A DNA stretch of 64,000 bases from an uncultured Planctomycetales bacterium (GCA_964583975.1 CAZOXU010000003.1:92153-156152); one strand, 5' to 3'. Numbered from the stretch's first letter, positions 1 to 24,000 are shown. Translations and numbers: made by a program. The notes: generated by a model from the letters alone, not told the origin.

Positions 1-3000
1 ATCTGATCTGTCAGGATCAGCAAGTAGGGCTGCTTCGTGGATCAAGGTAAGTAGTAATTCGACTTTATTGGCAGGTTCTAAGAGTGTTTCATCAATAAAA
101 AGAACATTGTTACGTACAACAGCCCAAAGGTCAGATAAAGGACCTGCGCGAATCTCCATATGGCTCATTTGCTCTAGGGCCTTTTTGAGAGATTCTTCAT
201 TCTTAAGGAAATCGTTCTGTGCTTCTTTAATGACCTTAATCACCCAGGCCTTGTATTCAGCTCGGTACTCTTTAGAAAGCTTTTTGACCTTTGGATCGTT
301 AATTTGTTTAGTAATCACTTCTTCCTTGGCTGTGGCGTCGGCAGGCAGCGCGTTGTTCTTCTTAGCACGATGCTGGTCAAGGGGTAAATTGATGCCTGGC
401 ACTAGTTTCCTTACTAATTTTGTGAATCCTAAGAAAAATACAAAATTTCTCCGATCAAACGAATACCATTTCTCTGAAAAATGAACAGCTCTCGCATGGA
501 TCGCGATAAATGGCCAAATAGCATACGTCAATCTATGCCTTAACGGAGCCATATAGTTCCCATTTAAAAGATCTATAACAAAATCAGAGGTTTTTTCTTT
601 TAATAATTCTTGAACATTTAGACGAATGCGGCTTTGAATATCTTTGTACAAAGAATCTTCTAATGGAATATAGATTTGGATAAATCTATTAAGGCCACCA
701 TCATCTTCTTCAATGTTTATCGTTTCAAACATCAGGTGGTCAACAATAAACCCTTCTGTAGGATGTGCCGAAATTCGAGCGATAATTGACATCTGGTATC
801 CTTTAACATGCATATGCACCCATAATTTACCATTTACGCCAAACGCAAAATGATCTTGAATTTTCTCATTAACTTCCATAAAAACTTCGCCGCCAAATCC
901 ATAGACACTATGACTATTCTGCTTAAGCATTTTTGCAATATAATCCCGGGTCCCTTTAATCCTTGGTTTTAAAACAAAATACTGAATAATATTTAGCGCC
1001 ACAAACACTACTGCAGTCGTCCATACGATCCACAATGGCAATAAACAGTCAGGATTGTTGGTATTAGCTGATGGCATTGTTGTAGTAGCTTCCTGTCCAT
1101 TAACCATCCCTGTCAAGACGCCCATAGCAACCGCACCAACAATTCCTTGACGAATCAGAGGACTTATTTTATGATCAGCCTGTTTCAATAAGCTTCTTAC
1201 CCCCGAAGAATTCACTATAGATTCCCTAATATATTCCCCAACGACTCGCAAACCATTTTTGACTTTAGTAAAGGAGTGTGTTATGTTGAACACGAGTTCA
1301 GTAAGTTTTTGGAATGATGGACGACGTAAATATGTAGCATCAATGTTCGCCAACTTTTCACTAGCTTTTATAGGGGCAACATTAACAACTGAAGTATTCA
1401 AATTGGGACTGTTAACCCAAATAACATTGTTGACCTGTTCGTTTTGGTTTTTCGTTTTAGGAATTTTTGTCCATCCGAAGAAAGGAGCATAGCATGACTT
1501 TATTTCTTTTAACTGGCTTAACAATTCTGTTAACGGTGAGCCTGTGGTTTGGGATTGATCAATACCTTCATCGTAACGACCGTAAACAATCCTAGAAATT
1601 AGGGACAGGGTACTATTTAGGGAGTTGTCCCTAATTTTCACCAACCAAACCATAATTCCACTGGCAACCAAAATTGCAGCCCACACAGGCTGCGCCAATC
1701 CCATCAACCCAACTATTGCAACCGATGCAGTTGTCAGCACCATGGCACTGCCTTGCTCTGCCCCACTCGAACTTTGGGCCCTAGGCATATTAACATTTAA
1801 TTCTTGCTTATTTAATACCGCATACCAACGGATCACTACAGACGGCTCTGAGGAAATATTTCTTAAAACATATCGACCCAGAGTGATTGGAAGGATTCTT
1901 ACTTCACCTGCTTTAACAATATCCAATAGCTCACCATTAGGAGAACGAATTTCAACGGAACCTTTTAACACATAGATGGGATACCCTCGTTCAAACAAAC
2001 GTTGTTCGATGCTCGTTGCCACAGTGAGCTTTTCAACAATGGTTGGTTCAACTCTAAATAAACTTTCAACTCGATTTCCATCCTTGTCTGATGGCGATAT
2101 TGTCTGCGCTTGCACCACAAATGAAGCTGGATCAATTTTCCCATAGGCGTGTTGATATCCTGCTTTATGCGCATGACGTAAGATTAATAAGCTAGCTAAA
2201 AAGTCTTCTTTTCCTCGTCGTGGAGCATTACCATCCATCGAATCATCAATGCTCACACTGGCACGCTTAAGATCACCTTTTTGAGAATCTAATAGTGAAG
2301 GGGCTTGAGACCATTCCCAAATGGTTGATCCACCTCGAATGGCATGAACCAGACCGCCACGAACCACCACCAATTGGCCCTGATGCAATTTGATTGGATT
2401 AACCATTCTTTGCATGGATCTTCGCATTCGAGCCACCAGTAACATTAACCAATTAACGTTTCTATTCCATCCGATATACATCGGGGCTTCTTCTCCAGCA
2501 ACAAGCCACAACTCTGGCTTAGCTGGCCGAGTTGGATGATTTCCTTTAGGATGCAATTGTAACGATAAAGACCTTCTAGCATCAATTAACTTCATGACAA
2601 CACCCATATAATTTCCATATCGTCTTACATGGGCAGCACCTAAAATAGAATACGCCTGCTCCTTTAAAAGCTCGGATAGGGGCATTTCCTGACCATCTGG
2701 CAAAACGACCTTAGATGGATATTTTTGATCGTCAGAAGCAATCCATAACTCCGCAATTTGCTCACCCAAACGAAACCCTAACTCGGCTGAACTTACATTG
2801 AGCGTTCTTAAAATCTCAGAATTCGCAACTGATTTCCCCCACGGGTAACCATCTGAACCTGTTCGAATATTTCGGTTCAAAACCTTAATCGGCCTCTGTG
2901 TGACATCCAAAATATCGACCCGAGTAGAAATCTTGTCAAACCAGTTGAGCCTGCTACCCCTTTGATCATTAACGGTTTTACTCCAAACCTTATTTTCCGT

Positions 3001-6000
3001 TATTGCTACGTATAAACCATTGCTAACATAATCTTTAAACGTAATTTGTTCAAATTTTCTCGATATCTGCTCGCCATAGACATCCCGGGCCGCATACAAT
3101 TTTTGCCATTTTTCTTTGTGTTCATTGGAATTTAAATTATGTTCACCTTGGTTATAGCCAAACTTTGCAGGAACTGAATCGTATACATGATCTATGATAC
3201 TTAACTGCATTCTCCCAGCATCAATGCGTCCTTTAACAGTTACGTATTTCTTAACCACATCGGCACTCACGATTGCAATTTTGGTAATTTGATTTCTATG
3301 CGCATAGTCTTCTATGGCGAGCATTAACATTTCTTGCCAAGCTGCAAACTTATTCCTTAGGTGTGTAGGTAATAATCCATACACATTAGATTGAATATTG
3401 GTCACCAAAATCATTTCTTCAAAACGGTAGAACCGAACAAAAGCAAACTCAGTGTCCTCGTTAATATGCCCAAATACTTCATAATTAACAGCCCATAATT
3501 TATCTAGTGCTTCCTTTTGAATATCGAATTTATTAACTTCCGCCACGTCTTGGGGAGTTAAATGTAGGGTCATATAATAAGGCGTGTCGTATCCTCTTTG
3601 AGGTATAAACCCATCATTTTCAATCACCGCATCTAACAGAGTGTCTCGAAACACTCTTATTTTTGAAGAAAATGGTTTTAGATGAGCGCTGTTACCATTG
3701 ACCTTAAATTCCCGACGTAATTGCTCAAGAGCTTCCGCTCGCCTTAAAGAACGAACTAATTCTTGAATTTCATAATGGGTAATTACTAAATTATTATTGG
3801 TACCAAAAATTTGTCTTAACGCTTTCTTAACTTCGCCATTGAACCCTAAACGAACTGTCTCATCTATTAATTCTTCTAATTTAACGCTTTGCCCTTGGGC
3901 TTTAGAAGACAAAACCTGAGTTAATACAGTGGCTACCTGGGTCGCATTTGCTCTTTCTTCCACCAAAATATTGTTTTCATATCTCAATGCTTTGCCGCCT
4001 AAACGTTGCTTTAATAGGTCATAAAATTCTTTATCAATCTCAATACCTGATTTTTCAATGCCTTGGGATTTTATGGCAAAATTAACCACAGCTTCAATGG
4101 GTAAGTAGGATTCACGAGTCGTATCAACAAGAGCTCCAAAACGATTAATCATTTGAAGATGGATATACTGCTCATCAATATTTGCATTCATGCGAGCCAC
4201 TAAATATTCTTCAAAAATAACTCTCATCAAGGCCATTAATGGCGCGTTACTTAAAGAGAAAATATCCACTTCTTTTAACAATTTCAAAATATGCGAATGG
4301 ATCAAAATCGTTTTATTATTGATATCTACCGCTAAGATGGCCTTGTTAAGTCTTGTATCATTGGCTGTAATTAATATGATCCAATCACTATCGAAAGGTT
4401 TGTTTAAACGCGGAGTTAATAGCGATAACAATCTGTTTAAAACTTGTTGTGAAATGCTTTGCCCCTCTTGATCCACAAGGTTTGCTGATTTAAAAAGCTC
4501 CCCTAAGGTCATTTGGATTGCAATCTGATCAAATGAATTATTTGCACGGGCAGATTCAGAAACGTTAAATGGTGCCTGATAAACTCGAGCAGCACTATCG
4601 TCGGATTCTACTTTTAACATTTTGTTTACTCTAAACGTATGTTTGCCTAAATGAATGGCCATAAAAAATTTACGGATGCCTCTCGATAACCAATTTGGAT
4701 TATTTTCATGGCTCCTAGCATATTTTCGCATCCACACTAAAACCCCTGCTACTAGTCCTACGGTTACAATTACGATTATTAATGCAACGAACAACGCAGA
4801 AACATTAGGTGTATAATTTCTTTGTCTGCTGGCTAATTCCTGCCCGTTAGCCCCACGAGTTAAAACGCCCATCGCAAGCACGGTAAGAACAATTCGATAG
4901 AAAATAGTGACAGGCACTAATTTCATTGTGGATAAACTGTGGGTAAATAAATGGTGCGTGTCAGCATTTTCTTTATTCACGACAATCTTGCCCCAACGAT
5001 TGATTCCCCAATTAAATGCATAATCAACATCCAAATAATTTGCGGTCACAACCCCTTCATACTCTGGTCTATTAGGAACAATATTTAAAAACTGTGTTGA
5101 TGGAGCGATTGAAACGACTAATCGATAATCTGCTTGTTGAGACTTTCTTTTGTAAACATCAGCGATAATTTGCTCTATATCTTGGCGGGTATTAAGCAGT
5201 TCTTCAGCATTGTGGATAATTCTTAAACGATTTCTGGCAGGAATCAGTCCTTGGATGGGGAAGAATCCCTTTTCTTTATTGTTTCTCGTATTATGTTCTG
5301 CCCAAACAGCTATGACTTTAAATCTAGAGTTTTTCAATTTGATCCAGAATAAAAGCCCATTATTGTCAATAGGATCTTCCCCACTATATTGCATACGACC
5401 TAAATGTAAATGCACCCATAAAGAACCATCGGGGGCCCAGAAGAAATGCTTAAGGATCTTTTGATTTTCCCACTCTTCAGTGATCACCGAGGTTCCTGCC
5501 TCTTTTAATTCTTTAGCTAGAGAATATGCTGGGGATTGCTCTTTGGAGATTTCTGATCTTCGACGATTACTGACCATTTGTGGCATCGATACATATAAGA
5601 ACATAATACCAAAAACAAATAACACCATCTTCTTAAGAAACTCATCTGCTTTGACTTTAGATTCTTGTGTTTGGGGAACTTGCGCCTTTAAATCTTCTTG
5701 GGCCTTTTGAATCTGCTTTTGTAGCTCATCTTGACGATCTTTCAATGTTTGAATGATCTGATTAATCTCTTCTTTGGTTCGTTTGATCTTTTCATCAATG
5801 GCTTTAAGTGCTTCTTGTGAAAGTTTAGCCTGAATCGCAAGTTCCTTATCCTTGGTTAATTTCTCTATTATTAAATGTAACTCATCTAATTTCTTCTTAG
5901 CTTGCTTGATTGCATCCGATTGAATCTCAATAGGATCTTGTTGAACTGGTTGTTCAGTCTTTACAGGTTCAACTGGTGCCACGACTGTTGGTGCTTCTTG

Positions 6001-9000
6001 TTTTGTCTCTACTGGCTTAGGTGCTTCAACCTTATCAGCCGAAGGCTGACCAGCCTCTGGCTGGGGTTCTGGCACGCTCACAACAGGTCTTGGTCTTGGA
6101 GATGGTCGATAGCTAAAGAACTCTGGTAACGGGTTTTGGACCTGGGTTGCTGTACTAAAGGTAATTAACGCGCCCCAATCGCTTCGATCTCTTAGATCAA
6201 AGCTATTAGGCATTTCTATATAAGGCTCGAATGTCAGATTCTTTATTACTGGCACATCACTTAAAAATGGCACTGCTCCTAATCGCATAGCCACTCCATA
6301 TCTGGAGCCCGTGTAATACTGATAAATCTTATCGCTGAATGTTTGTGGCTCTAATGGATTGCGTTCCAAATAAGGATCCATAAATCCAAGTACATTCTTA
6401 AAGGTCAGCTTGCCATACCAATCCTCTGCTCCTGTATCATTGACAAAGTAATGATAGTTGGCCGTTAAGTTAGTTGAAATTGGTGTGACATTAAACCAAA
6501 TCTCTGGAATATAAGCATTTCGATTCTCATCAAAATTACGGATAGCTGTTAAAGCTGCCCCATAATTGTCTTCATTGTGTTCCAATCTTAAATATCCAAC
6601 ATTGTTGTAATCTAATGAATATCGTCCACCCAGGCTAAAGTCTATGCTTGGCAGTCCCCATATATTCAATCGATCACCAAAAGATAAATATGTTCCATTA
6701 ACTCCTTGATTAAAACGTCCTGTCGAATAATCCAATACGGCATCTGTTTCCCATGCAGCGCTATACCAGCGTGTACCCTCATGCTCTTGCAGACGTAATG
6801 TCTGTAACCCGTAATGAATGCCTGCTCGTGATTCTTGGTTGATCAATGTCAACGTAACGTCCCATGGTTTAGTTTCTTCTAGGGGTGTTTCAGTTGTTAC
6901 AACTGGATTATCTGATTGTTGTTCTTGGGGTTTTTCTGAAATACTGTCTGATCTTCGACTTTCTGACTCAAGCACTTTTCTAATGTCATCCATTTCTTTT
7001 TGAGCCTCTTCAATCTGAAGATTTAATTGCAGAATCTTTAAATTGGCTTTTAGTCTTAATGCGGCCTCTTCTATCAACCCGCGAGCCTTGGCGACACCTA
7101 GCTTAATTTCTTGAGCTTGTAACAGGACGAAAGCTCTAAATTGTTCTTGTCGCTTTTTATTTTCTTGTTCTTCGGCAATTCGCTGGACCTCTTGCATGTA
7201 TTGCTCGTAATCAAAGAGGTGTTGGAGAAACCTGTCTCGATCTTGATTATAAATCATTATTTCAATCTCCCGAGCCAGACGCGCATATTGCGCTTCCTGA
7301 GCTAGACGTGCTGCCTCGGCTGCTTCTTTGGCAGCTTTTGCAGCTTGACGTTGTAGTTCTTCTTGAGCTTTTTGCTCAGCTGTTGGTTGAGGCTGTGGCG
7401 CTTTAGTATTACCTCCATTATTTAACACATAGATCAGTGTCATCAAAATGGTGATTGGTAAGAGGGCAAAAGCAATTTTCCTCCAAAGCGAAGAAATTGG
7501 GGACAGCGCCCTATTTTTCTCACTTGTCGTTCCCGAATGTTTCTGTCGGGAACCTAGAACCTGAGTGCCTGGATCTCCGATAACAACATTCGGAGATGAC
7601 ATTGTTACAAAAGCCTGCTGTATTTCTGCAAGGTACTCCGGCAAAGCTACAATTTGATGATCTTTCGCAAATCGACCTGAGAAAAAGCTTAAATGATCCT
7701 CGAGTGTGCCTCGCTTCTTCAGAGCGGCAATATGCTTTTGGCGGATGCGCGCTTCATAAACATCTTCTTTTTCCTTAGATTCCTGAGGATTTAAAATGTG
7801 TAAGATTTCATGCTCTAAAATTTCAGCAAATACCAGATCATCTAAGCTAAACATCAATGGGGATAAGAAAATATAATGCTTGGATATATAAGTTTGTTGA
7901 GCTGCCAATACTTTCATTTGGGGTCTTAAAATAAAGAAAATCTCTAAATCTTTCATTGATGAGTGCTCAGCCATTAAATATTTCAGTGCTTTGAGAATTT
8001 TCTTTTCTTCAACCTGAGTCAAAGCTCGTTGAGGATCATTGGATCCAGAAACGCTTGCTGGAAATTCATGAATAGTTGACACTCCGCGTCGTAAGCTTCG
8101 CATATTCTTACGTAGGTAATTAAAACCAACGATGAGCAAAGCTCCCAAAATAATCCAATTAGGCTCAATAAGACGAAGTGCGTTTGATATGCTTGCTGCT
8201 GGCTCTTGCGCGACATCAGGGGTGGATAAATATAACCTGCCTTTATTTTCAGGAAGTTTAAAGAATTCCTGTAATAAATCTAAGCTTAAGCTTATGCCTT
8301 GAGGTTGAGCTGCGTTCGGATAACCTTGCTTGGCTAACCCAACAGTCATAGCTAAGGTCAAAACAATGGTCACAAATACTTTTAAGCGTAAATCTTTTCT
8401 TACAGGCTCAGAAGCTGTGTACCTTTTGACTAATCCAGCAACCATCTCATTGATAAATAACAACGCTCCCGTGATTGTAAACAACAAGCCCCAAGCCACA
8501 TATTGACCTTTTTCATACGAATAGGCATAGTCAGCGGCAAAATATAAAAAGGCATAGGCCAAGATAAAACTCAAGGAACCTACAGCAATTATAAATTCAA
8601 GGACAGGTTTAATACGATCGGTAAGATCTGGCGATGGTGACTCTTGAATACGAGCCCTATCTTTCTGTCCGAAGGCAACTAAGGACAAGATTGTTCGTGT
8701 TACGTCAGCAGATGTTGATGTTTCAGAGGTTGTATGTTCTTTCTTGTCATCGCCTTTAAGAAGAACAGGAATCATAATCACATGAAAAAGTATGACCCCC
8801 CATATCAAAAGCATCATTTGCCACATTCTGTCCTTTTCTCTAATAAAGGACAATCGATCTGGATCGGCATTTAAAGCAATATCTTTAAGGACAATTCTTC
8901 CATTCTCATTAACAGGACCTTGTGGCATTGGAGCTAAAGCTTTAATTAAACCTGCTCCGCGAGCCAAGGTTTTTAATTGACCGTCATGGACATCGCTAGC

Positions 9001-12000
9001 TGTTGGGAAGACCTTGGCAAAACCGCCAATTTTACCAAAGTAGTTTCGAACCTCTTGATCGTTAAGCACCTTGGTTAAAGAAACTTTATTCTTAGCATTT
9101 AAATGACGATCCGCTGCTTCGATATGGGCCTTAGCTAAAATAAAGCGTGCTAATTCATCTTCGAGCGTGGCAGGGCCATAGGGGAAATTTAATGAAGCTG
9201 CAATGAGAGCCACCTGCTCAGCGCTCAAATAGCCCATGTGATAGTAAGCTGCTTTAAATTTATGTTGCACATTATCTAAAGCATCTTGGATAAACCGTCC
9301 TACAATTATTTTAGATGTGTGATTGCCTTCAAGTAAATCTACAATGTCGCCATGCAGATGTGCCTGCTCAATTGCTTCCTTAACATTAACCTTTCGCATT
9401 TGGTAAGGACCCAGAGACTCCGTGAGACCAAATGTATCAGCTACTAATTTCTTATTGGCGCGCCAGCCTTGCGGACGACCCGTTTCCATATAGGCCGTGT
9501 TGTAGATGATGGCATCTCGTAAATTGGTAGCTGTTGGCGCCAAATTCTGTGCGCTATGCCCCAATTGAGTTAAGGCTACAGTGAACGTCACCGACATCGT
9601 GCCTATCAATAAAGTTCTTAAGATCCAGCCCTTTTTAAAGTAGGCCGGCAATGATCGAGTCGTAATTAAAGAACTGATTGTTTGAAAGACTAAAATCAAT
9701 CCTGCCATTGAAATTAAGATCAAGGTGCCAAAAAATCCAAAGGCTACGATTTTGGCAACAACAGGAGAATAAACAAATCCCCCGGCTTTATAGAGGAAGG
9801 TATAGGCAATCAAAAAGCCAAGCGCTGCAGCTGCGTAAATAGGCATTACGGGAATTTGGGAGGAAATTGGGGACAGCGCCCTATTTCCCTTGTCAGATTC
9901 TTCGCTTCGCTCAGAATGACTACTTAATAATAGGGCGCTGTCCCTAATTTCCAATTTTACAGCGAATTCGGGTAAAGGCAGGATGCCACGAGATTGATTT
10001 TGAAGCAACCAGGCTTTAAATTCTTGAAGGGTATTATTTTGTTCTAAACGGTGAATATCACGGGTTTGTATAGTTTCTTCATCCAGTCCTACAATATGAC
10101 CAATTTCATGCGACATTACTGCGCGACGTATAACAGGTGGCGCACGCAGGGTTTCTGGATGTAAATAAACAACCCAAACGGTTGCTTGCCCCTTACCTGC
10201 AAATTGATGCACCGCCGCTAAACGCGACAATCGAGGTTCAACTACAAAACGAATCTGATACTGACCTAATTGATCATATCGACTATATTGTTTTAACTCT
10301 GTCAAAATATTGGTAAGTTCATCACCTTCTAACAATCGCTGTGGACCTTCTTGGGCCAGAACTTGGACTGGGAAAAATTCAAAATCAGCCTCAGGGGACA
10401 TCTCCCGTCTTTTCTTCTCATACGCCTCGAGCCTTCCTAGACGGAAATTGTTGGCACTCAAGGTTTCGCCTTCTACTTTTACGTTCTTATGATGTTCATA
10501 TAAAGCATCTTGTAAGAGCCGCCAGAACAATGGTTCAGGTCTAGCCCCTTTTTCGTCCTTCATTCTACTTAACCATCCCGATAAATTATCCAGCTTACCC
10601 CATCGCTTTAATCTCTCAATATCGCGTGGCCAGATCGCTTCTTCGCTAAGTCCTAGAATATGATCGATCTCATGGTATAGAACAGCCTCCAAGATATACA
10701 AATAACCCTCAGGCGTGCGAGATTTCTCTAATGTTTCAAATATTATGGGATGTAAAAATATTTGCCAAGTCTCTTTCGCTTCGGATGTTCTACGTTCAAC
10801 AAATCCTAATGTGCCAAGTTTAGGCTGTATGGCTAGCAACATTTTTATACGTTGTAAATCTTCTTTGCGATGATGTTTTAAAAGAATAGCTATGACTCGT
10901 TCACGTTCTTGCTGTGTTGGAGCCCTTAAAGTCCCCTCCTGATGCGCAACATTTACAGGAAAAGCGTGTAATATTTGTCGTTTAATTCGCTTAAACTCTC
11001 CTTCGCCATAGTACCCTGTAGAGGCTCTAATAGGAATTCGAGGCATGGCCGTATAAATCTCAACAATATGTTCGTACATATAAGAGAAGAAATCACGGAC
11101 AGGATACGGAGCCGTATTATATCCTCGCGAACTAAGCAATGATTCAATGTCTTGGGTGGGAGATTCCAAGGCAAGATTAACCTGACGATGTCGTATCTTC
11201 AACATAGCAATCAACAAATCATTGACCACACGAATATTAATTCTCTTCTTTAAGATAGCTTTTTTATCTGAACCCGGTCTGAAAAACTCTCTAGTCAATT
11301 CAAGGTCTTTTAAGAAATCTCCTACCCGTTGCCGTTCTTCCAAGATTCTTTCGTAATCTCGTTTTTCAATAAACTCTTCAATGGTTTGATCAAACAGTAA
11401 ATAAAGGTTTTGAATATGGAAAAGCTCTTCTTGCAAACCATCTAGAAATTCTTGTTCAAGCAAAGGATCTTTAAAAGCAATGGCCATGGCCCCAGTATTA
11501 GCAAAAAATTGACGTCGTTCTTCACGGTCAAAGTCATAACGACCCAGACTTCCGCTTCTGCGGCTTTCATTAAAGATACGGTGCCTGTAATCTTCATTGG
11601 CAGATGGTTCAGTCATCGACAAAATCTCTCGATCTTCATTAAAATCAATGTGTACAATTCCTAAATTATCTTCAAGAACTTCTCTCAAAGATCTTTCTAA
11701 GAGTGAAATAGTAATACCATTGCGCAAGGATATATCTCCTAAACGAATGGCATCAGCATTAAGTACAATGCGACCACCTGTTTTTAAGGATTGTTCTAAG
11801 AGGCCAATGATCTTGTTGCTTTGAAGGGGGAATCGTTTAATAATATTTTGCATTAAACCATCATCGCTTAACAAGGCTTCCATGTGAACTATTTGATATT
11901 CATCTTCTTTCTCGTCGCCAGGGATGGCGCTCCAGTATGGGCCTAAATTTTCTACAAGAAAATCAAAAATAGCATCACCTGAATCTGCAAAATAGGCCTT

Positions 12001-15000
12001 CATTAGATTTCTCGTTACAACACCTCTGAGGCGTCCTAAATTCTCTAGTTGGCTATACATATAAGCCAGATTAACATCTAAAACAGTGGCCTCAGCCCTG
12101 GAAACCCTGCCATCATTAATGGTGTTTTCAATAATATCAGCAACAACTGTAGCCTTCAGTTCAAATAAACTTGGTCTTGCTGGTTGCAAAAGAACATCCG
12201 CATCTCCACCTGCTAAAAGAATCCCCGCACGAATTTTATGCACTGGTATGGCTTTATGATTTTGGTCCAAACGTTCAGGGAACATAACCTCGACAGTGAC
12301 GTTGGGTAACCCTTCACTTTGGGCTTTTAAAACATCCTCCCATACATCCGTCAGAGTGCGGACTGGCTCAGATTGTGCTGTGGCTTTTAATAAAGGTAAT
12401 AATCGTTTATAGGCTTCCGTGCCTCCTAATTTCTCGATGACTCTTTGTTGCATGGCATAGGTTTGACGGATATAGGCCAAGAATTCTTTAAAATCTTCAT
12501 TAGAAAGATACTCAAATGCCTGCTTAAACTCATTGGTATTGACAATTTCTAACGGATTACTCTTCCACACATAAACTTCCGGCTCAACAGCTAGTAAATG
12601 ATTTTGATCTAAGAAATATTCTTTTAAACTATTCCAAACACTTCTACTATTATTGGGAAACACCATTCTTAATTCTCGTTGAGATATCAAACCGCTGCTC
12701 AAATTATTAACCATATTAATTTGATCACCATCGTTCACCACGGCCTTTGCCCAACCATTGGATACCATCGCTTCTTTAAATGTTTCCCAATTTATTCCAA
12801 GAGCTGTAATCTGCGTCTTTGTGATTTGGCCGTATTTGAAAGGCTTAAACAATACCTGAGCCTGACTAAAACCAACCTTGCTCCCTGAAACGGCAACATT
12901 TAAAACAATAACTGGTGAAGCAAAAAGTTTCTCTCGTCGAGATACCCATTGTGTTATGCGTTCTTTGTTTTCAGGATTGGTAATCACAATCACCAAATGG
13001 CTACTACCTTTGCCAGCAGCTGTGGACAATCTTTGAATGGCCCCCACCATGCTTTCAGTTCTTTTCTGATGCAACTGATTTAAGGCATCTTCAAGACTGA
13101 TGGAATTAAATTGTAAAAGGTATTTCTTGGCTTTAGCTATAGCGCGAGCTAGGTCTGTTGGAGCAAAGGCAATAATTCTAACAATGGTGAATGTTATTAA
13201 AACGCCTGAAATCATCTTGAATATAGTTGAACCAAATAAAAATATACCAAAAACACCCGACCAGAACATAATGGCAGTAAAGGAACGATTGACAATTTCA
13301 TTGAAATTCCAACTTCTTTCCCAACCTGTTTTCACGTCTCGCTCTTCAATACCGGATAACAAAGGATAAGGATCTTCTTGGGCAGTTCCACGGCCGATGT
13401 CTTTAAATTCACTGCTAACTTTATTAATAATAAGCTGTGGATCAGGATAGCTTCCTACAGATATAGTTTGGGCAAAGGCCATCAATTGAGACAATTCTTG
13501 CATGAATGCCTGTTCTGCCTCACGCGTATTGCTATGAAGACCGTGCAGTGGATTTCGACGAGTAATAAATTCAATAAATGGGAAAAGAACAAACATAAGT
13601 CTTACCAAAACGCCTTCACTGATTTCATAATTTTGATTACCATCTCTTAAAAACATATACCCTTTGAAACGAATTCCTTTAGAAAGTTTATCCACGAAGC
13701 GGGTGTATGGCAGCACATAACCTAAGGTAAACTTGCCAATGATTTGACGCATTGTCTTTAATTGTTCCACTGTTGATCGTTGGTGGTTATGAGGGTTCTT
13801 CAGATCTTCTTCAATAGAAATCAGGATCCACTGGAAGACTTTAAGCATTCTGGCAAATAACCTTCCAATGATAACTCTTTGCTGGAATAATTTTTTGACG
13901 TTATGGACACGGACTTCGCTAAACTGAATGATTTTTCCGATTTCAGTTAAGATCAATCTCAAATCGTCTCTTTCCCATCTTTGATTGCCTTTTAATTTGG
14001 CAGGATCTTTGACATTAACCACTTTTCTGGCATAAATGCTATGTAATGTAGCGAAAATAGCATACAAATCTTGATGCGAAATCTCTACGCTATCTCGAGA
14101 GCCGTTTTTGCCATTAACATTAATTCTTTCTTTACGCTCTCTTTGTTGTCGTTTAAAAAGATACATTCTAATACCCTGCAAAACAGCTCCCACGACCAAC
14201 AATAATGCCCACCAGAACTTCCTGAACATATCGTAAAGATGCATCATGATTTCAGTTGTTATGGAAACTTCCTTAACTCTAGTTCTTAAATCGACCCCGC
14301 TTGTGGCCAATTGGCGGTCATAATCATTTAAAAATGGCTCGTAGCGTCTGACCCCTTCAACGGCGCCATCCCATACACCTTGCGTGCGGATTCTTATTAC
14401 GGCATGCTCTATAATGCGCTCACGCAAATCTTGGCGAATTTGAGAATTTTGACCTTTGACATATTCCATCAGGCCTTGCTCAACAGCTGCTATCAATAGG
14501 TTTTTCTCCTGGTAGTCCCACCAAGATAAATCTTGCGCATCATACAAATTCAAGATTTCATTTAACAAACCATTGGCATCAATTTTGATGGCATTTCGGA
14601 TGAGCAAATAGCCAATTCTCATATTCCCTGTTTGTTTCCATGAATTATCTTTCAATATGGTGCTCATCAAAGCACGAGCTCGATTATCTAGATTGCCCAT
14701 ACTTAAGGCCAAGGTGCTTATGACAATAGGGTCTTCTTTATTACGTTCATACAAGGTTTTGATGGCTAATAAATGCGCATCAATGGTGCCTGAATCATTG
14801 GCTGGTACAACCCCTAATAAGGCCATGGCTAAAGCCAAATCTGTCTGTGCATCGCTATGATTATTGAGGGCAATGTTTCTCGTTATAAAGGGTTCTACGT
14901 CACCGTATCCTAACCAAGATTGAATTAACCCTGCGGCTGTGATTCGTACATTATTAGTTGCTGTCAATGCTTCTTTAACAGCCTGGCGCAATTGCTTTAA

Positions 15001-18000
15001 TTGAACATCATTTAACACAGTCTTTGATACCCAGCTTTGTAATGCTTCTTTAAGCGGATCGTTATCAGCTAAACCTTCCAATGTCTGGATGATCAATCGA
15101 TTGATCCGTGCAGGAATTTGGGCATTTACTAAATTGGTAAATTCCTGGACATCTGATTCCCATATACCATAACCATTGATCTTCTGGCTCAAGAGGCCAT
15201 CAGGCGTTTGACCCAACAACTCATTTGATTCACTTTTCTTATAAGCGTTCTCGGCTCTTAACACCTCTGCGACAACGGCAGAATCTTTTAAAATTCTATT
15301 TAAAGCAGGTGAATTGACTTTGGCCATTAGTCCTACTAATTTCTGAGTGCGTCGGTCTAAATTATTCATGGCCTCAAAACCACCCTTAGCAATGCCATTT
15401 TCAACCATTTGCATGAGCACATCAGTTTGTTCAAACGACCAATCTGGATGAGCAATAGCTAAATTAATCAATAAATCCACATAGCCTCTTTCGACATCGC
15501 GTAGCGCCAATGGCTTAAAGTCAGATCCTACGCTTAGGATCATTTGAATATCTTGTGTAGTCAGACGATTGGCAGCACGTCCATTCTTAATTTCATCTTG
15601 AACATCTTTAAACACCAATCGTAGGGGTTCTTGATCGGCTGTAACTGGTAGACGGTTTAAATGATTATCAATCAATTGATTTAAAGTCACGCGGACTGCT
15701 GGAACGGCTTGAATATAATTGCTTAACCAAGTACGTCGCTCTTCATAACGTTGCATGGCTTCAATGGAATCTGGAGCGCGAAGCATACCAAAGAATAAGC
15801 TGACCAAACGATTCACGACACGAATATCAGCGCCTGCTTCGGGCTTAAGCGTCTTTAATACATCGAGGTCTTTAAAGAACACCTCGCTGTTGTCTTCGCT
15901 AGCAACCAATCCTATGGCCAATTCGTTGCTGGCTTCATCAGCAGCTGCTAATTTGGCAATGACCTTAAGCTTAAGATCAGGACTTCCTGAGCTGTACATA
16001 CCTGCAATCAATTCTCGGCGACTGTCGTACAAGCTAGCAGCCAGAGCTGATGTGTCGCTGATTTCAACGCGGGCTAACAATTCAACTACAGCTTGTTTCT
16101 TGAGGTCTGATAAATTGTTAGTGTTGATTGCATTCTTTAATGATGCCCATTGAGCGGCATCGACGCTTAAGAATTTATTGCCTAAGCTGTCCACGCTGAC
16201 TTGCAATTGTTGACCTTGCATATCATTGCCAGAAAGAATCACTGTGATGAAGTTTTCAACACCTGAGGCTGGAGTTAAATTAACGCCGATCTGCGCTGCA
16301 GTTTGTCTTAAAATAGCTTTGGCTGTCTCATTGCTTAAGCGCAGTTGTTGTTCAAAACTTGCCTGAAGGGCTGCGACGAGTGTCTCATCAGCGCTTTGAC
16401 GCATGGCGGATAAAGCTGATTCGTAAGCTTTAATGGCTTCTCTTTCAGCTTCCGTGGTGCTCGATAATTTCTGCAACAAACGCGCTAAATCCATAACGAT
16501 TGGCTCAACTAAATCTATGGCAGCTTGTGAAGAGACCCTCACATGTCGGGCTACTTCTGTCTTGGCTAAAATGTTGTCCCCAGCAAATACGCTTCGCAAA
16601 CTAGCCAAAGCCTTGGCTGGCTGATAAGCCATAATCCATTCAATAGCTTGTTTAGCGATCTGGGTATCACGATCATTCACACGTAAGAGTACGGATTTGA
16701 ATAATTCATCATCATTACCTAACCGACCGGGCTTGCTACGAGTAGCATTCAAAACCTCAACAATTACTTCGTTGCTTGTCGCATCACGCAATACCTTAGC
16801 TAAAACTTCACGCTGACGTAAGTTATTGCCTGCACCTAATTTTGCAATAGCTTGGGATTGTTCTTTGCCAGCGCTTCTTAAAGCCTTTAGCGCATCGCTG
16901 CTAATTTTAGCCCACATGGCATCGATCGTGGCTTGTCCTTGATCGGGTGCGTCAGCTAAAACGATTCTCAATAATGGCTCATAGACCAGATACATGACCT
17001 CAACTACATTTTCACCGGTAGTAGCCAACAATCGAGGTCCAACGCGATCGGTAACATAGCTCGCAAATTTATTCTTAAATTCAGCATTTTGACCTTGGAT
17101 ACGGACACCAATGCTTTGCACAAGTTTATCCAATTGGTCGGCTACCAAAGCTTGACCTTCCACCTTGGCGCTAGCATGAACCTTGGCTAATCGATCAAGA
17201 CCATCAAAGATCAAATTCCACAAGGTATTATTGCTCTTTTGTAAGACAAGGAATATCAGATCTGTGTCTTCAACTTTAAGTTCTTCGATTCTCTCGATTA
17301 CTTCTGCAGCCACAGAAGCCACTGGATAAGCCATAGCAGCTCTTAAGGCCATATATCTGACATCGCGATGTCGATCGACAATCATGCCAAAGAGTACATT
17401 CTTGCTGTTATTAAACTGGGTAGTGCTGATTGAATCTGCAGCTAATTGGGCATACATGCCTTCTAAAGCATAGAGCTTAGCGACCCTGGCTTGATCAAAT
17501 GGTTCACGTTCAGCTTCACGGTATTTACCTAAAGACTTCTCTAATTCATCGATCAAATCTTCAGCATACGAAGAATCAATCTTCTTAGCCTTGGCATAAT
17601 CATGTAAGATGATGGCTCCTAAAACCCTTAACTCCCCTTCGGTATTCCCGCTTAAGCGCACATGATGATAAATACGATCTACAAATGCAGTGATCACATT
17701 ACCCACACGTCCTATGATGGATACAGCTGGATTTGAATAATCTGGATTGGTGACTTTAACTTCAATTAAATTGTCAAAAATCAAACTCCACCACCATGGC
17801 TTTTCAACGCCAGGATTGTAATAGGCAATGATATTCTCGCTGATATATCCTGGGATGCGTTCATCGCCAGCCGCAGCCAAGGTGATTAAAGATTTCATTC
17901 TGACATCAGATGGGGTTTCTTTGTTATTGAGAGCCTTCCATAATTGTCGTACTTCTTCTTCACTTAAACGAACCTTGCCTACTAAATTATCCCCGTCTAA

Positions 18001-21000
18001 TTGGTTGTACCATAATGGCACCTCTGAAGTATTAACACCCACTTTTACAGGCTCTTGTGTTGGGTTTTGATGTACAGGAGTTACAGGTCCTTGTGGCAAT
18101 GGTGTCACTGTGGGTGTTGGACCAGTTACAACCGTAGGCTGAGATGCAACAGGTTGTTGTGGCACTGGCACAACGGTTACAGCAGGAGACTGAGTAACCT
18201 CTGGTTGGGGCTGAGGTGACGGTTGAGGACGAACAATATCCACTGACTTTTGCTCTGGAGCTACAATACGTGTCACAGGAGCAAATGTTGTAGCTTGGTT
18301 GTAATGTTGCCATACCTTCATGCTTAAAATACCAACTATTCCAACGATTATTCCTAACACAACAATAACCATTATTACTCTCAATAATTTCATAATTATA
18401 TTGAAGTTAAAGATCGCAACTTTTTGAGTTGGCGTTACGAGTAACTCGCTGCTATTGTCTTGTGGAAGATCTAATTCAAACGTTGTTTCTGGAACTTGCG
18501 TAGTTACTAGATCATCCTTTGAGCTTGAGGTTTGTTCATCCAAGGCTCTTTCTATTCTGGCCACATAATCTTCAACAAGGGTAATTCCATTCTTATCTAA
18601 GAAATAATCAAAGTGCTCCTCTAACATGCCTCTTTGCTGCATTGCTGTAATATGTAACTGACGAATGCTTTGTTCATAATCCTCATCGTTTTGTTGAGCC
18701 CCCTGAGGATTCAACTTATGCAATAATTCATGTTCCAAGATTTCAGCAAGACGAATGTCTGTCAAAGTCAGAACCAAAGGATGTAAATAATCATAATGCT
18801 CTTCTTCTCCCGTAGCTGCTTGATACGATTGTGTAACGGCTAAAACTGCTAGTTGTGGATCAATAACAAAACCAATCTTCAAAGCATTAAGCTCAGGATA
18901 GTACCCAGCCAACAATCTTAAAACTCGTTGAATCTTTTCTTGTTGTTCTTGATTAAGAAGTTCTTGATCTCCTTCTAATGGTGTTACATTGGCAGGAAAA
19001 CCATTGGCTGCGTTTCGTTGAGCTCTTCTTGCCTTTTGACGTTCTTTGGCTGCAGCAATTAGTTCTGGTGTTGCTGAAGGTCCTTCGTTTGGTTTCTTAC
19101 CTGTGAATGCTCTGACTCCTGGAACTGAGGCTGTTACAGTTGCTGGTTTTACATCTTCTGTTGTGCTAATAAAGACGGCTAATTGTCGAGCTCTTTCTTG
19201 TGTAATATTGACCTTATCTCCTCTAACTTTTGGAGCTGCTGGTTTAGGAGTTTCTAAGCGTGGGAAAAGACTTAACACCTGAGCTGACTGGTTGTTTAAG
19301 GCTGTAATCTCATACTCACCCATATTGGCTGGTATTAATACGCTTGTTCCTTTCTTTAAGATATGGCTTCGGCCATTAGATACTTGTTTGAGTTCAACAG
19401 CACCATTCAATCCCATCAAGAAGTGGAAATAATTGACACTTGGCACAAGCACTCTTTGAGCGCTTACTAAATGGATGTTTTTAATACCTGCGCGTAGTGC
19501 GATATCAGAGCTAGCTAAGGTGCTTCCATCAGCTAATGTTTCAAAAATCTCCCAGCCAGGGGTTCTAGAGAAGTTAATAAAAGCTTCTCCTCTTAATTGA
19601 TTAAAATCAATAGCAGCCAACCCTGCTTCGATGTGCAAAGGTCTGGTAGGATCATTGCGACCATAGTCATAAAGTCTTAAGGTGCAATCTGAAATCGTAC
19701 AAATCTCAATGGCTCTGATGCCTCTTTGAAACGAGTGAACGGTACCAGAAGCAACGCGATAAATGTCACCAGCCTGCACCTTGATAGAGTTCAAATAAAC
19801 TCGTATATCCTTACCTTCTCTGACGGCCTTCTTGAATTCTTCTGCGCTAACACCTTCTTTAAGTCCTAATAAGAATTCATTGTCTTGATCTGCTTCAATG
19901 ATGATATAAGCTTCTTCCTTGCCTGACTCTGATAGGCCTAATTGTTGAGCAATTCGGTCAGAAGGATGAACGTGGATGGATAATGGCTCCTTTGCATCTA
20001 AGAACTTAGCGACAAATGGCGCTTGGATTCCCATAGCAGCCATATCCAACATAGAACCATTGGGTAACAGGATTCTTGAAGGATATTGAGGATGTTGTGA
20101 TAATTCCCAGCTTTCTGAATAAGCTACTCCAGCTTGAGCCTCGATTCCTTTAGCTTGGGAGATCCACTGTCCACCCCAGGTTTGATTTCTGACAACAGGA
20201 ACCAGAGCCACAAAACTGCTAGAAATTAGGGACAGCGCCCTATTAATGTCATCATTGCGAGTGTTTTGTAAAAGTTTCAGGAAGTCTGCCTCTGCGATAA
20301 TTCCTCGAGACCTATTATTGGCGAGCCAGACAATAGCTTCGTTAATTAAATTCCATTCTTTCAGGCGGGAGATATCGTGCAGTTGAACTTCTACTTCTGA
20401 TAATCCAAAAATATGATCGGCTTCGTGGGCTAATACAAGTCTTAATACTTCTGGTGGCCCACGTAAGGTCTCTGGATTTAAGTAAACAATCCATATAATC
20501 TTTCCTTCATGCTCAAATCTTTGTACAACACCAAGTTTGGTAAGCATTGGAGCCACCACAACATAGACGATATGGTTGTCTAATGCAGTGTAACGGGCAT
20601 TGGCTTTTAAACCTTCCACGATCAATTCAAGTTCTTGTGCTGTTGGCGCTCTCTTGGGTCCAGATTGAACTGGAACATTGACTGGGAAAGCTTGGATATC
20701 TGAGGCTCCTGGTTTGGGAGTAACTGAAAAAATATCGTGTTTACCAACTAAATTTATATCGAAGCTTTCTTTGGATTCAATAACAATGGATTGGACAATC
20801 ATTGGACTTGCAATATTGATAGACGTGGATTCTTTATCGAACTCGATTGTAACCTGCTCAGCCTTTACATTAGCTTTATGGCCCTGGGCATCTTTTAATG
20901 CGATGGTGATTCTTTCTTCTTGAAGGGCTTTTAAAATATTGACTTTTACTGACTTTTTATTCCACCAAGAAACTTTTATACCATTCAATTGAATTCTAAC

Positions 21001-24000
21001 AATTCCCTGTTTGCCATCAAAGCTAACATAGCTATCACTTAAACTCTTGGCACGAACACCCGCCTTAATAAACATTAAATTAATAACGAGATTAAATTGA
21101 TCGTCACCACGATTATTTTGTTGAAGAGTGCTAGAAATAGTTTCTTTTAAATTTATCTGTCGACGCATATTTGTTCCTAAACGATTCACGACCGCAGCAA
21201 TTTCTACGACAGCGGCTTTGATCATCACGCCTTCAACAGCTGGTATTAACTCGCCCAACAAATCTGCAACCGCTTTAAATTGTTCCACACTATCAGCTGC
21301 TTTAATATATCCGACGGTGCTATAAACAAACTCAGTGGTTTTGGGGAAACCAGCTTTGGCTGCGCTTGTTTTAATTTGCTCAATAAGCTGAGGATTGGTT
21401 GGTTCAAAAACAACGACAATGCCGCCATTGTTTTCCATTAATTTAAGCTCAACAATCTTCAATTCAATGGTTCCAACGCCGTTTAAAAATCCTGCTTGAA
21501 TAACACTTGAATACGCAGCATCTACATCCTTTTGTGTAACTCCTGCTGGCAAATTCTTACCCACCGCTAAGGATGAATGAATTCTATGCAATGGCATTAA
21601 GGCCAAATTAGCCTCAGGAAGAATTGCTCGTAATCTTTCCTGGATATTCTTAATGATGCCGTGTAGGGATGTTTGTCTGATAGCTAACTCTAAGCTGACA
21701 TTGCTATAAACAACTCCCTGGGCAGGGTTTTGATAAACATAATAATTCTTTTCTAAGCGTTGATTGAGTTCTTCTAAAGCCTGTTTCTGGGCCAAATGCT
21801 CCGCAGTTTTAGCTGCCTTTTCTTGTTCTGCTAACCTTGCTTCTTGCTCTTGAGCTAATCGTAATGCTTCTGCTGCCACACGGGCTGCCTCGGCCTGTGC
21901 TTCAGCTATTTGCTTTGCTTCTTGTTCTTGGGCTAACCGCACTGCCTCTGCCTGGCGGGCTGCTTGTTCTTGGACTAAGCGTAATGCTTCTGCTGCTAAA
22001 CGTGCTTCCTCTGCTTGGCGGGCTGCATTTATTTCCTTTGAAATCTTAGCGTTTATTAAATCAGCCATACGTTGTCGTACAGCTATTAATCTGTCTGCTT
22101 CATACTGTTGTTTACGAACTTCTTCCTCTGCTGCTCGTTCTTCGGCTAGACGCTTTGCTTCTTCTTGAGCAATTTTTGCAGCTTCAATTCTTTCAGAAAT
22201 TCTTGCGGCTAATTCTGCTGCCTCGCGAGCTGCTTGTTCTTCTGCTGCCTTCTGTGCTGCTAATCTTAAAGCTTCAGCCTTTGCTGCTTCTTCTTGAGCA
22301 ATTCGTTGCTCTTCAACTTCACGTGCCAAACGGGCTACTTCTGCCTCTTGTGCTGCTTTTTGCGCTGCTTCTGCTGCCTCGCGAGCTGCTTGCTCAGCTA
22401 GGCGCTTTGCTTCTTGCTCTTGGGCTAATCGCACTGCCTCTGCTGCTGCTTCTGCCTCGCGTGCTGCTTGTTCTTGAGCTAAACGTAATGTTTCTGCTTC
22501 TTGTGCGATTCGTGCTTCTTCTGCTGTTAATCGTTCTTGTTCTGCTTGTGCAATTCTTAATGCTTCAACTCTTGCAGCTTCTTCGCGGGCTGCTTGTTCT
22601 TCAGCAACGCGTCGAGCTTCCTGTTCCCGAGCCAGAGCTGCTGCTTCTTGAACTTTACGTAAATCTTCTTGTTCCTGGGCTAATCGTAATGCTTCTGCTG
22701 CAGCTACTTGTTCTAATCTTGCTGCTTCGACAGTTGAATCAGAAGTAAATCGAGGTAATCGGGCTCCAATTCCTGGTTGAATATCTGTTATCTCTGGAAC
22801 AAAAACAGTTTGGTCAACCCCAGCAGCAGCTCCCTCGTTACCTGTTTGGGGTGGAATCACAGATCCACTAGCTGCTGCAGGGGTTGATCCTGCTGATGGG
22901 GCAGGGTTTAAATTGATGCGTGTGGCTAATGCAATTTCTTGTTCAGAAGGAGGAATAACACGAATACTGTCATCCTGAGGCGAAGCCAAAGGATCTATTT
23001 TAGATTCTTCGCTTTGCTCAGAATGACCATCTGAAATGAGATCACTTAATTTAACACGGGTGGCTATTGAACGTTCTTGAGCAGTAGGATTATCAGTTTT
23101 TTCTTGGACTATAGGGCCAGCACGAATACTTGGAGTACCTTGAACTTGACGTGATTTTAAGAATTTAATGACCAACCAGAATAAAAGACCAACGCTCGTA
23201 AGACCTAAAACAACCAGCATAACTATATAAAGTGTATTAGGACCAACAGCAGGTTTAACATCGTTGCCTGGTAAGCTTGTAGGTGTTGTGGGAACGTTGG
23301 TGGATCCTTTAACGGGTTTAGCTGTCTCATCAGTTTTTTGACCTTTGCTGAAAGCTGCTTTCATTTGGCCAAAGACTTTCTTCACTGTGCCATCTTCCTT
23401 CATCCATCCCCACTGACCTTCTCTGGCATCGCCAGCGGCTTTGCGGCTATTGTCTTGTAAAGACATAAATACAATGCTTACCTTCATCTCTTGTGCGACG
23501 TTCCAATCATTTTGAACCAATTGAGCTTGAACTTCTTCGCTATTAATAGAAGCTTCACCTGCTTCAGCAATATAAAATGGCTTACGGACACCAACCACTT
23601 GAATCGCTTCTTCAACATCAGCCTTCAAAGAAGCATTATGACGATAATAGTTAACGCCAATCGCATCGATGTTGGTCTTTATGGCTTCTGCTAATTCCGT
23701 AACAAATCTGATACGAGTATTGTTTCCTTGGATATCACGTGAGGTGTCGCCTAATACGGTTGTGACAGTTACATCAGCACCCACCTGGGTATGGATAGCA
23801 CGAGCAGCGGCATCGATAACGGTAAATAATTCGCTCATAGGGCGTCCGCTCCAGGCTGGGAAATTGCCATCGAAATTTGGTTCGTTCATAATTTCCACAA
23901 CGAGCTTGGCTCGGTTTTCAAGAGCAGCCTTGATGGTGCGAACATATTCCACATAGTTATTAGCGGCTAATGAAATTCGGGCACCCTCTGTTGGAACAAC

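Follow-up and report, generated by a model that had tools for sequence, protein, structure and literature searches.

Classical repetitive extragenic palindromes (REPs) are lineage-specific repeats. REPs, their inverted doublets (REPINs) and the REP-associated tyrosine transposases (RAYTs) that accompany them in REPtrons were reportedly described by Nunvar (2010), Bertels & Rainey (2011), Ton-Hoang (2012) and Messing (2012; PDB 4ER8), and the Rickettsia palindromic elements (RPEs) are said to go back to Ogata (2000). In the TIRYT or TIRtron variety, RAYT-like genes carry terminal inverted repeats (TIRs) which form small repeat families (PMC3733652), and RAYT groups are known outside the Proteobacteria (PMC5581495). 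Genes of several species contain in-frame REPs, frequently dimers that encode 20-30 amino acids, and some genes have two of them; among intragenic repeats of the CGTC type, those of R. conorii correspond to RPE-4 and RPE-6, and the linkers of modular proteins are likely tolerant sites for intragenic REPs (PMC3733652). Here we describe a 22-nt palindromic word, AAATTRGGGACAGCGCCCTATT, that lies at four sites within a giant open reading frame (ORF) of an uncultured Planctomycetales bacterium (GCA_964583975.1, CAZOXU010000003.1:92153-156152). The 64,000 nt of this stretch are referred to as the window, and positions are counted from its first letter.

Our analysis indicates that the 22-mer is probably a unit of the REP/REPIN type (or of the TIR/TIRYT type) linked to a RAYT-like Y1 (HUH) transposase of the IS200/IS605 superfamily, and that the copies within the giant ORF are probably tolerated passengers. 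We refer to it below as the REP unit. The repeat family is previously undescribed, has its own RAYT-like transposase, and is common to uncultivated anaerobes of many phyla; a literature search with the repeat strings returned only unrelated primer matches.

A word scan of the 64-kb window located four exact copies of AAATTRGGGACAGCGCCCTATT, at 7494-7515(+), 9864-9885(+), 9929-9950(-) and 20223-20244(+), and a copy with 3 mismatches at 1596-1617(+), whereas the expectation from 100 dinucleotide-preserving shuffles was 0.00. A relaxed scan added a sixth, degenerate arm with 4 mismatches at 1616-1636(-), and none beyond these six at up to 5 mismatches. All six arms fall within the first 20.3 kb of the window, where they make up two doublets and two singlets at four sites:

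1596-1637, arms 1596-1617(+) and 1616-1636(-): decayed compact REP doublet of ~42 nt, arms overlapping or abutting, with 3 and 4 mismatches
7494-7515, plus strand: single REP unit, exact, G variant, in a conserved stretch at 7490-7516 (repeat family D10)
9862-9952, arms 9864-9885(+) and 9929-9950(-): REPIN-like REP doublet, 87 nt or 29 codons
20223-20244, plus strand: single REP unit, exact, A variant, with 24 nt identical to the arm at 9928-9951

The first-pass annotation of this stretch, made from the sequence alone, had reported the 22-mer in-frame at four sites and translated without stops, and both statements were confirmed. The giant ORF that it named is real, although it lies on the minus strand: frame 1 of that strand has no stop in 21,333 codons and is open at both ends of the window (1 to 64000), so that the whole window is one giant ORF and contains no ordinary genes. 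This single frame runs through every arm, and the peptides given for them (NRALSPISS, EIRDSALLL, DINRALSLISS and IRDNSLNSTLSLIS) are correct. The earlier assignment of 9864-9950 to an inverted repeat and of two further sites to single arms also held, while the stem-loop described at 1597-1636 proved to be a decayed doublet. This last site reads KIRDNSLNSTLSLIS, directly after a predicted transmembrane (TM) helix at aa 20772-20790, and is an 86-88% match to the 42-nt compact doublets that are intact in two loci from other genomes, L040 and L049 (L numbers denote loci fetched from such genomes). The unit at 7494-7515 reads NRALSPIS(S) on the minus strand, 1-2 residues before the predicted TM helix at aa 18838-18856. 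The doublet at 9862-9952, whose 24-nt arms are 96% complementary around a 43-nt spacer, reads EIRDSALLLSSHSERSEESDKGNRALSPISS and ends 3 residues before the predicted helix at aa 18051-18069. The unit at 20223-20244 reads NRALSLIS(S), and is followed in the protein by a short hydrophobic stretch and a PMI-like domain. With up to 7 mismatches allowed, no decayed partner arm was detected beyond chance beside the two singlets. Compared with the exact copies, which are young, the copy at 1596-1637 is older; its decay by 3-4 mismatches per arm is as expected for passengers of different ages.

The host is a TM-rich, multi-domain orphan giant protein of at least 21,333 codons. Its product contains only 4 Cys in 21,333 amino acids and 34 strongly hydrophobic segments, and the GC content of the window is ~41%. 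Pfam searches with the C-terminal 8,400 residues gave only weak PMI/cupin and zincin signals. Five paralogous modules with an HExxH motif, at aa 14525, 15090, 17776, 17964 and 18730 (~nt 7,600-20,600), are zincin-like, with Pfam Zincin_1 matching only at E = 0.0025, and share 24-40% protein identity with one another. After three of the five, a REP lies in the variable linker ahead of a hydrophobic segment, ~99 aa past the HExxH at aa 18730 (7494-7515), ~53 aa past that at aa 17964 (9862-9952) and ~61 aa past that at aa 14525 (20223-20244); the other two modules have none. The first-pass annotation had placed three of the four sites beside a predicted TM helix or a domain boundary; in the present analysis, three of the four lie within 4 residues of a predicted helix (random placement P ~8e-4 in a simulation performed post hoc).

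Searches for relatives of the giant protein were made in several collections. A 501-aa query gave no match in a word-indexed protein database, and a scan of metagenome loci with six peptide patterns from the protein gave none either. An exhaustive phmmer search with aa 17,700-18,899 against 1.84 billion representatives yielded two weak matches, neither of them over an element site, and tblastn and blastn of the giant gene against all 155 fetched loci produced no usable orthologue. The protein resembles the 'Archaeovorins', giant proteins of Omnitrophota (bioRxiv 10.1101/2023.11.21.568195), in its length of more than 20,000 aa, its many TM segments and its scattered divergent enzyme-like domains, and no sequence homology of the window protein to them was established. 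A check by term of two giant-gene papers found no mention of palindromic or REP-type repeats.

The recurrence of one peptide past paralogous modules could be explained by an ordinary coding repeat, that is, by remnants of duplicated modules kept alike by gene conversion or by selection on NRALSxISS. Three copies do occupy the equivalent position past such modules and encode the same peptide, and at three sites the residue that follows the unit is Ser, encoded by different codons. The identity, however, is at the nucleotide level and sharp-edged within flanks of only 24-40% amino acid identity, and a different peptide is encoded by one arm that is oppositely oriented. Identical 22-mers in such strongly diverged flanks rule out a simple segmental duplication of coding sequence, which we rejected also in view of the word's dispersal in other genomes. 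There it is found in both orientations, in all frames, mostly outside genes and in unrelated phyla, so that the coding-repeat explanation is effectively refuted and scarcely credible. The first-pass annotation had named absence of the motif elsewhere, together with duplicated flanks, as the outcome that would speak against an inserted element; instead, the 22-mer is abundant in other genomes and the flanks are divergent.

To learn about its distribution, a collection holding one genome per prokaryotic species was scanned, and the exact 21-mer was found in 108 genome stretches; a metagenome scan with the 23-nt variant of the window yielded 47 more. According to the labels of the metagenome-assembled genomes (MAGs), the hosts of the 21-mer belong to the Omnitrophota, Elusimicrobiota, Syntrophales/Smithella, Planctomycetota, Vulcanimicrobiota, Spirochaetota, Firestonebacteria, Nitrospiraceae, Firmicutes and Bryobacteraceae. 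The host loci range in GC content from 0.43 to 0.63, which argues against a single contaminating organism, an origin that is also disfavoured by the 44-54% identity of the associated transposases. The variant of the window, GAAATTr, is the most frequent one in the Omnitrophota loci. The number of exact copies seen per MAG is modest, roughly 6 to 10 or more. Spread by phages was considered and rejected, since no exact copy was present among viral contigs, and cyanobacterial small dispersed repeats and HIP-type repeats were dropped as candidates, the genome scan having returned no cyanobacteria.

Stacking 260 distinct instances defined a unit of ~24 nt, wAAwTrGGGACAGCGCCCTATTw, with sharp edges, the information content falling to ~0 on both sides. 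It is an imperfect palindrome (AAwTrGGG / CCCTATTw) with a 6-nt loop. Neither conserved flanks nor a target-site duplication were seen around these instances or around the window copies. A target-site duplication is not expected for Y1 transposases. Inverted pairs in the loci of the genome collection are convergent in 59 cases and divergent in 2. Their spacers measure -2 to 185 nt, and certain spacer types are found in more than one genome.

Other genomes carry the family mostly outside genes. When the longest open frame running through each element was taken, its median in the genome loci was 58 codons, compared with 321 at random positions in those loci, and 22% of the elements fell within open frames of 150 codons or more, for which the background value is 77%; the corresponding values for the metagenome loci are 71 vs 230 codons and 14% vs 64%. 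The window departs from this habit, all four of its sites being intragenic. That copies might always be in-frame, as the first-pass annotation had asked, is thus not a property of the family. Since the window is ORF throughout, the in-frame state of its copies is a survivorship filter.

The association with a transposase is seen directly in other bacteria. In 11 loci, corresponding to 11 of the 26 RAYT-like matches, a gene of ~225 aa, or its remnant, is enclosed between a + arm and a - arm; examples of full-length bracketed genes are those of L007, L046, L085, L095, L114, L121, L125, L130 and L152, and L059 has the same arrangement, outside the distance filter that was used. The ~225-aa protein matches Pfam Y1_Tnp (PF01797) with E = 1e-13 to 1e-16 and is IS200-like. 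Among NCBIfam models it is matched best by NF047646, 'REP-associated tyrosine transposase', with 81.2 bits in one protein against a cutoff of 80, whereas the IS200 model reaches only 20-26 bits. The sole solved relative that was found is E. coli TnpA-REP (PDB 4ER8). The HUH motif (NHVHF) and the catalytic-tyrosine motif RYVE.NPV are conserved among the transposases, which, as in REP/RAYT systems, would be expected to bind and cleave the unit on single-stranded DNA. Transposases from different phyla are 44-54% identical (L007, L046, L059, L061, L085, L095, L011 and others), while the 22-mers flanking them are nearly invariant. Two transposase lineages occur in the Syntrophales.

Some doublets preserve parts of this gene. 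The long-spacer doublets at L033 1165-1317 and L094 753-964 hold N- or C-terminal fragments of the transposase, and at L077 184-412 a fragment lies beside an arm; the spacers of the fragment-holding doublets measure 109-185 nt. These fragments point to the gene-less doublets being deletion derivatives of the transposase unit.

Compared with REP/RAYT systems, the family shares the ~24-nt imperfect palindrome, the inverted doublets, the mainly extragenic location and the bracketed Y1/HUH gene, as well as a transposase whose best family match is the REP-associated tyrosine transposase and whose best solved relative is TnpA-REP. It differs in that the unit has no GTAG or CGTC but a TTAG/ATAG in its stem, which is 5-8 bp long with a conserved mismatch. 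Its doublet spacers are far more variable (-2 to 185 nt), some of them with transposase fragments, more as in an insertion sequence (IS) or a miniature inverted-repeat transposable element (MITE). Moreover, at least 8 phyla share the unit in near-exact form although the identity of the transposases is only 44-54%, which is unusual for REP systems and may inform how such enzymes recognize DNA. The missing GTAG/CGTC tag points to the TIR/TIRYT variety. As in that variety, a tyrosine transposase comes with ~22-nt inverted repeats dispersed as moderately abundant doublets, and the tag is lacking; the published families are from other organisms and have other sequences (PMC3733652). Like MITEs, the non-autonomous copies share their termini with an autonomous element, and deletion intermediates occur (L033, L094 and L077); the absence of a target-site duplication sets the unit apart from them.

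The first-pass annotation had likened the window copies to RPEs. What stands of this is a dispersed palindrome in-frame in coding sequence: as with RPEs and intragenic REPs, copies occur as singlets, dimers or clusters, add ~8-30 aa, typically lie in linkers or loops of modular proteins and can be several per gene, a likeness of behaviour only. The element is not an RPE but a ~24-nt REP/TIR-type unit with a RAYT-like Y1 transposase. By description, RPE-1 has 100-150 bp and RPE-4 and RPE-6 are CGTC-tagged, whereas the present unit has 24 nt and no CGTC; in addition, all matches to the unit are in phyla other than that of Rickettsia. A further difference from intragenic REPs and RPEs is the host: the orphan ORF exceeds 64 kb and contains, in-frame, palindromes of at least two additional, unrelated families. 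In-frame REPs are already known, and the intragenic location is here an unusual one for a known kind of element; mildly surprising are the orphan host of more than 64 kb and the invariance of the unit across phyla.

Copies lying in-frame were also found elsewhere. In an Omnitrophota MAG (JADFYF010000002.1; L100 2521-2589), the lipid-A-disaccharide synthase LpxB (Pfam PF02684), a conserved enzyme, contains an in-frame doublet, LIRDSALFSNEKYTHENRALSLIK, in a surface linker 54% along the protein, and none of the 13 closest LpxB orthologues (65-79% identity) has the doublet. In a Planctomycetales-labelled MAG (CAZVZR010000060.1), a single ORF longer than 2,197 aa takes up the entire locus L104 1-6591 and provides a second case of a long multi-domain ORF with the family. 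A doublet lies there between acetyltransferase (GNAT) and methyltransferase domains and a single arm past the last detected domain; these copies are read in the same frames as those of the window. Two paralogous ORFs of 1,382 and 1,328 codons in one Planctomycetales-labelled MAG (L053 127-148 and L010 3778-3799) have one unit each, read as NRALSPII and NRALSLII, at the same near-N-terminal position and with similar flanking protein.

The reading frames of these copies are restricted. Stops close some of the six frames in which the unit can be read: one frame is interrupted in every case, and two others are interrupted in the commoner sequence variant. The six window arms use the same two frames, EIRDSAL... 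and NRALS[L/P]I..., and all in-ORF doublets, in the window and in other genomes, read IRDSAL... and then NRALS[L/P]I.... This pair of frames requires a spacer length of 1 modulo 3, and this holds for the window (43 and -2), L104 (25) and L100 (25). For annotation, NRALSLIS and IRDSALL in predicted proteins are repeat DNA and not protein motifs.

Based on these observations, the following course of events can be proposed. In other bacteria, the transposase gene has an inverted pair of units around it, and single units and doublets that are internally deleted or gene-less occur dispersed, mainly between genes. Judging by the behaviour of the family elsewhere, units would have entered the giant ORF by transposase-mediated single-strand transposition, and the source genome presumably encodes the transposase. 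In an all-coding window, only copies that keep the frame and are free of stops, with a length divisible by three, would persist, and variable linkers beside membrane helices may tolerate 8-30 extra residues. Rather than functional signals, the window elements are most likely neutral passengers, each contributing a short peptide to a linker. The gene of more than 64 kb tolerates at least eight in-frame palindromic inserts of several families.

Several points weigh against this explanation. No orthologue was found in the searched collections that could provide an empty site for the window copies, so that insertion into a pre-existing ORF is inferred. In LpxB, the element adds a net +8 aa and replaces ~15 native residues, and is not a clean insertion. 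The second transposase that was tested scored 70.7 bits with NF047646, below the cutoff of 80. A GTAG/CGTC tag is missing from the unit, which by itself folds into only a weak hairpin (5 bp, z = -0.4 to -0.5). Finally, the placement is non-random, with three of four sites near a TM helix and three of four after HExxH modules at an equivalent linker position, and a model of random insertion and tolerance does not obviously predict such juxtamembrane and module-boundary positions.

This placement, together with the folding of the sites, could also be taken for a functional nucleic-acid signal, such as ribosome pausing between domains, RNase cleavage or other processing, an antisense terminator or protein binding. 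The sites do lie at domain and TM boundaries, and the hairpin at 9855-9960 is very stable (-28 kcal/mol as single-stranded DNA, z = -7.8); moreover, the '+' unit, antisense to the ORF, scores as a weak terminator-like hairpin followed by a T tract at 7498 and 9868. The pausing of translation by mRNA hairpins, which the first-pass annotation had proposed, found no support, and a strong hairpin is formed at only one of the four sites. At two of the four, the single arm by itself gives no significant fold (z = -0.4 to -0.5), and the doublet in region 1590-1645 (-10.4 kcal/mol, z = -4.2) is decayed. The window shows no excess of hairpins (68, compared with 48-74 in codon shuffles), no excess of promoters or terminators was found in it, and Rfam gave no match. 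Since the identical sequence is moreover found dispersed between the genes of many phyla, and flanking a transposase, we regard a signalling role as very improbable.

A different account of the same positions is that the elements are fossil intergenic spacers: the ORF would have grown by read-through fusion of membrane-protein genes or by the shuffling of REP-bounded cassettes, and the REPs would mark the joints instead of having entered an ORF that was already there. The family is mainly intergenic elsewhere, and two of the sites (7494-7601, and 9864-9950 with an arm of a second palindrome family) are mosaics like intergenic REP clusters. Past the paralogous HExxH modules, three of the four sites take up equivalent positions, immediately preceding or following a TM helix, and one copy in L104 likewise lies between detected enzyme domains. 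Against this stands the exact match of four arms to the consensus within modules that are only 24-40% identical, which makes the REPs young relative to the module duplications. A remnant of a start codon or ribosome-binding site does not fit, with only 1-4 codons between a REP and the following TM helix, and no consistent N-terminus-like context was apparent among the TM helices across the giant ORF. After two of the five HExxH modules a REP is missing, and LpxB is an existing gene that the family clearly entered. For these reasons, we consider fossil spacers an unlikely explanation.

In its more general form, this account holds that REP clusters are seams of giant-gene construction, created either when former intergenic spacers lost their stops or when a transposase moved REP-bounded cassettes. 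Such seams would account for the position after HExxH modules, the abutment to TM helices and the mosaic of unrelated palindromes; we regard them as distinctly unlikely. If true, REP/RAYT systems would contribute to the growth of giant genes. The evidence for the 'recombination joints' between fused modules that had been suggested in the first-pass annotation, namely the position after paralogous HExxH modules and beside TM helices, is circumstantial. Exact and decayed copies are datable markers, and with orthologues they could separate growth by fusion from the accumulation of passengers, the latter being the reading that we prefer.

The window contains further palindromes. A second dispersed family, unrelated to the 22-mer, has the form GTCATYCTGAGCGAAGCGAAGRATC ... 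GAATGAC over ~59-69 nt and is in-frame, being read as HSE(R/Q)SEES... or VILSGAKDL.... Arms of this family occur elsewhere in L073 (Planctomycetales MAG) and L075 (Omnitrophota MAG). A third, unrelated palindromic doublet adjoins the REP at 7494-7515:

9896-9920, minus strand: single arm of the second family, GTCATTCTGAGCGAAGCGAAGAATC, lying inside the 43-nt spacer of the 9864-9950 doublet (family D9)
22969-23027, minus strand: complete palindrome of the second family, in-frame GHSEQSEESKIDPLASPQDD, fold -13.6 kcal/mol, z = -3.1
37036-37097, minus strand: complete palindrome of the second family, in-frame SHPERSEGSQIGDSSATPQND, 82% identical to L073 1177-1242
41203-41271, minus strand: complete palindrome of the second family, in-frame VILSGAKDLKEDSSSLKSVPQND (inverted repeat I6)
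7525-7601: third palindromic doublet, 25-nt arms, 76% complementary, adjoining the REP at 7494-7515

The third doublet consists of two inverted hairpins with 8-bp stems and 9-nt loops, at 7529-7553 (GTTCCCGA-atgtttctg-TCGGGAAC) and 7573-7597 (ATCTCCGA-taacaacat-TCGGAGAT). Together with the REP at 7494-7515 it makes up a mosaic of repeats that occupies ~108 nt of the linker. Similar units may be widespread, but the 1 Mb of fetched loci contained none of them.

Other repeats were observed along the giant ORF. At 21800-22760, ~320 aa rich in Ala, Glu, Gln and Arg are encoded by degenerate nucleotide repeats (families D1-D4), and the product resembles a coiled-coil spacer (…EALRLAQEQEA…). At the N-terminal end of the protein, aa 100-1400 (~nt 59,800-63,700) contain internal repeats of ~270 aa with a mutual identity of 27-41%. 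A 35-nt unit with 89-94% nucleotide identity occurs at 6035-6069, 36623-36657 and 36686-36720, with a weaker copy at 18179-18213, so that copies are up to 30 kb apart. It is composed of two mini-hairpins, CCAGCC-AGA-GGCTGG and TCAGCC-TTC-GGCTGA, and sits in proline-rich linkers, where it reads PSQPEAGQPSA(D/E).

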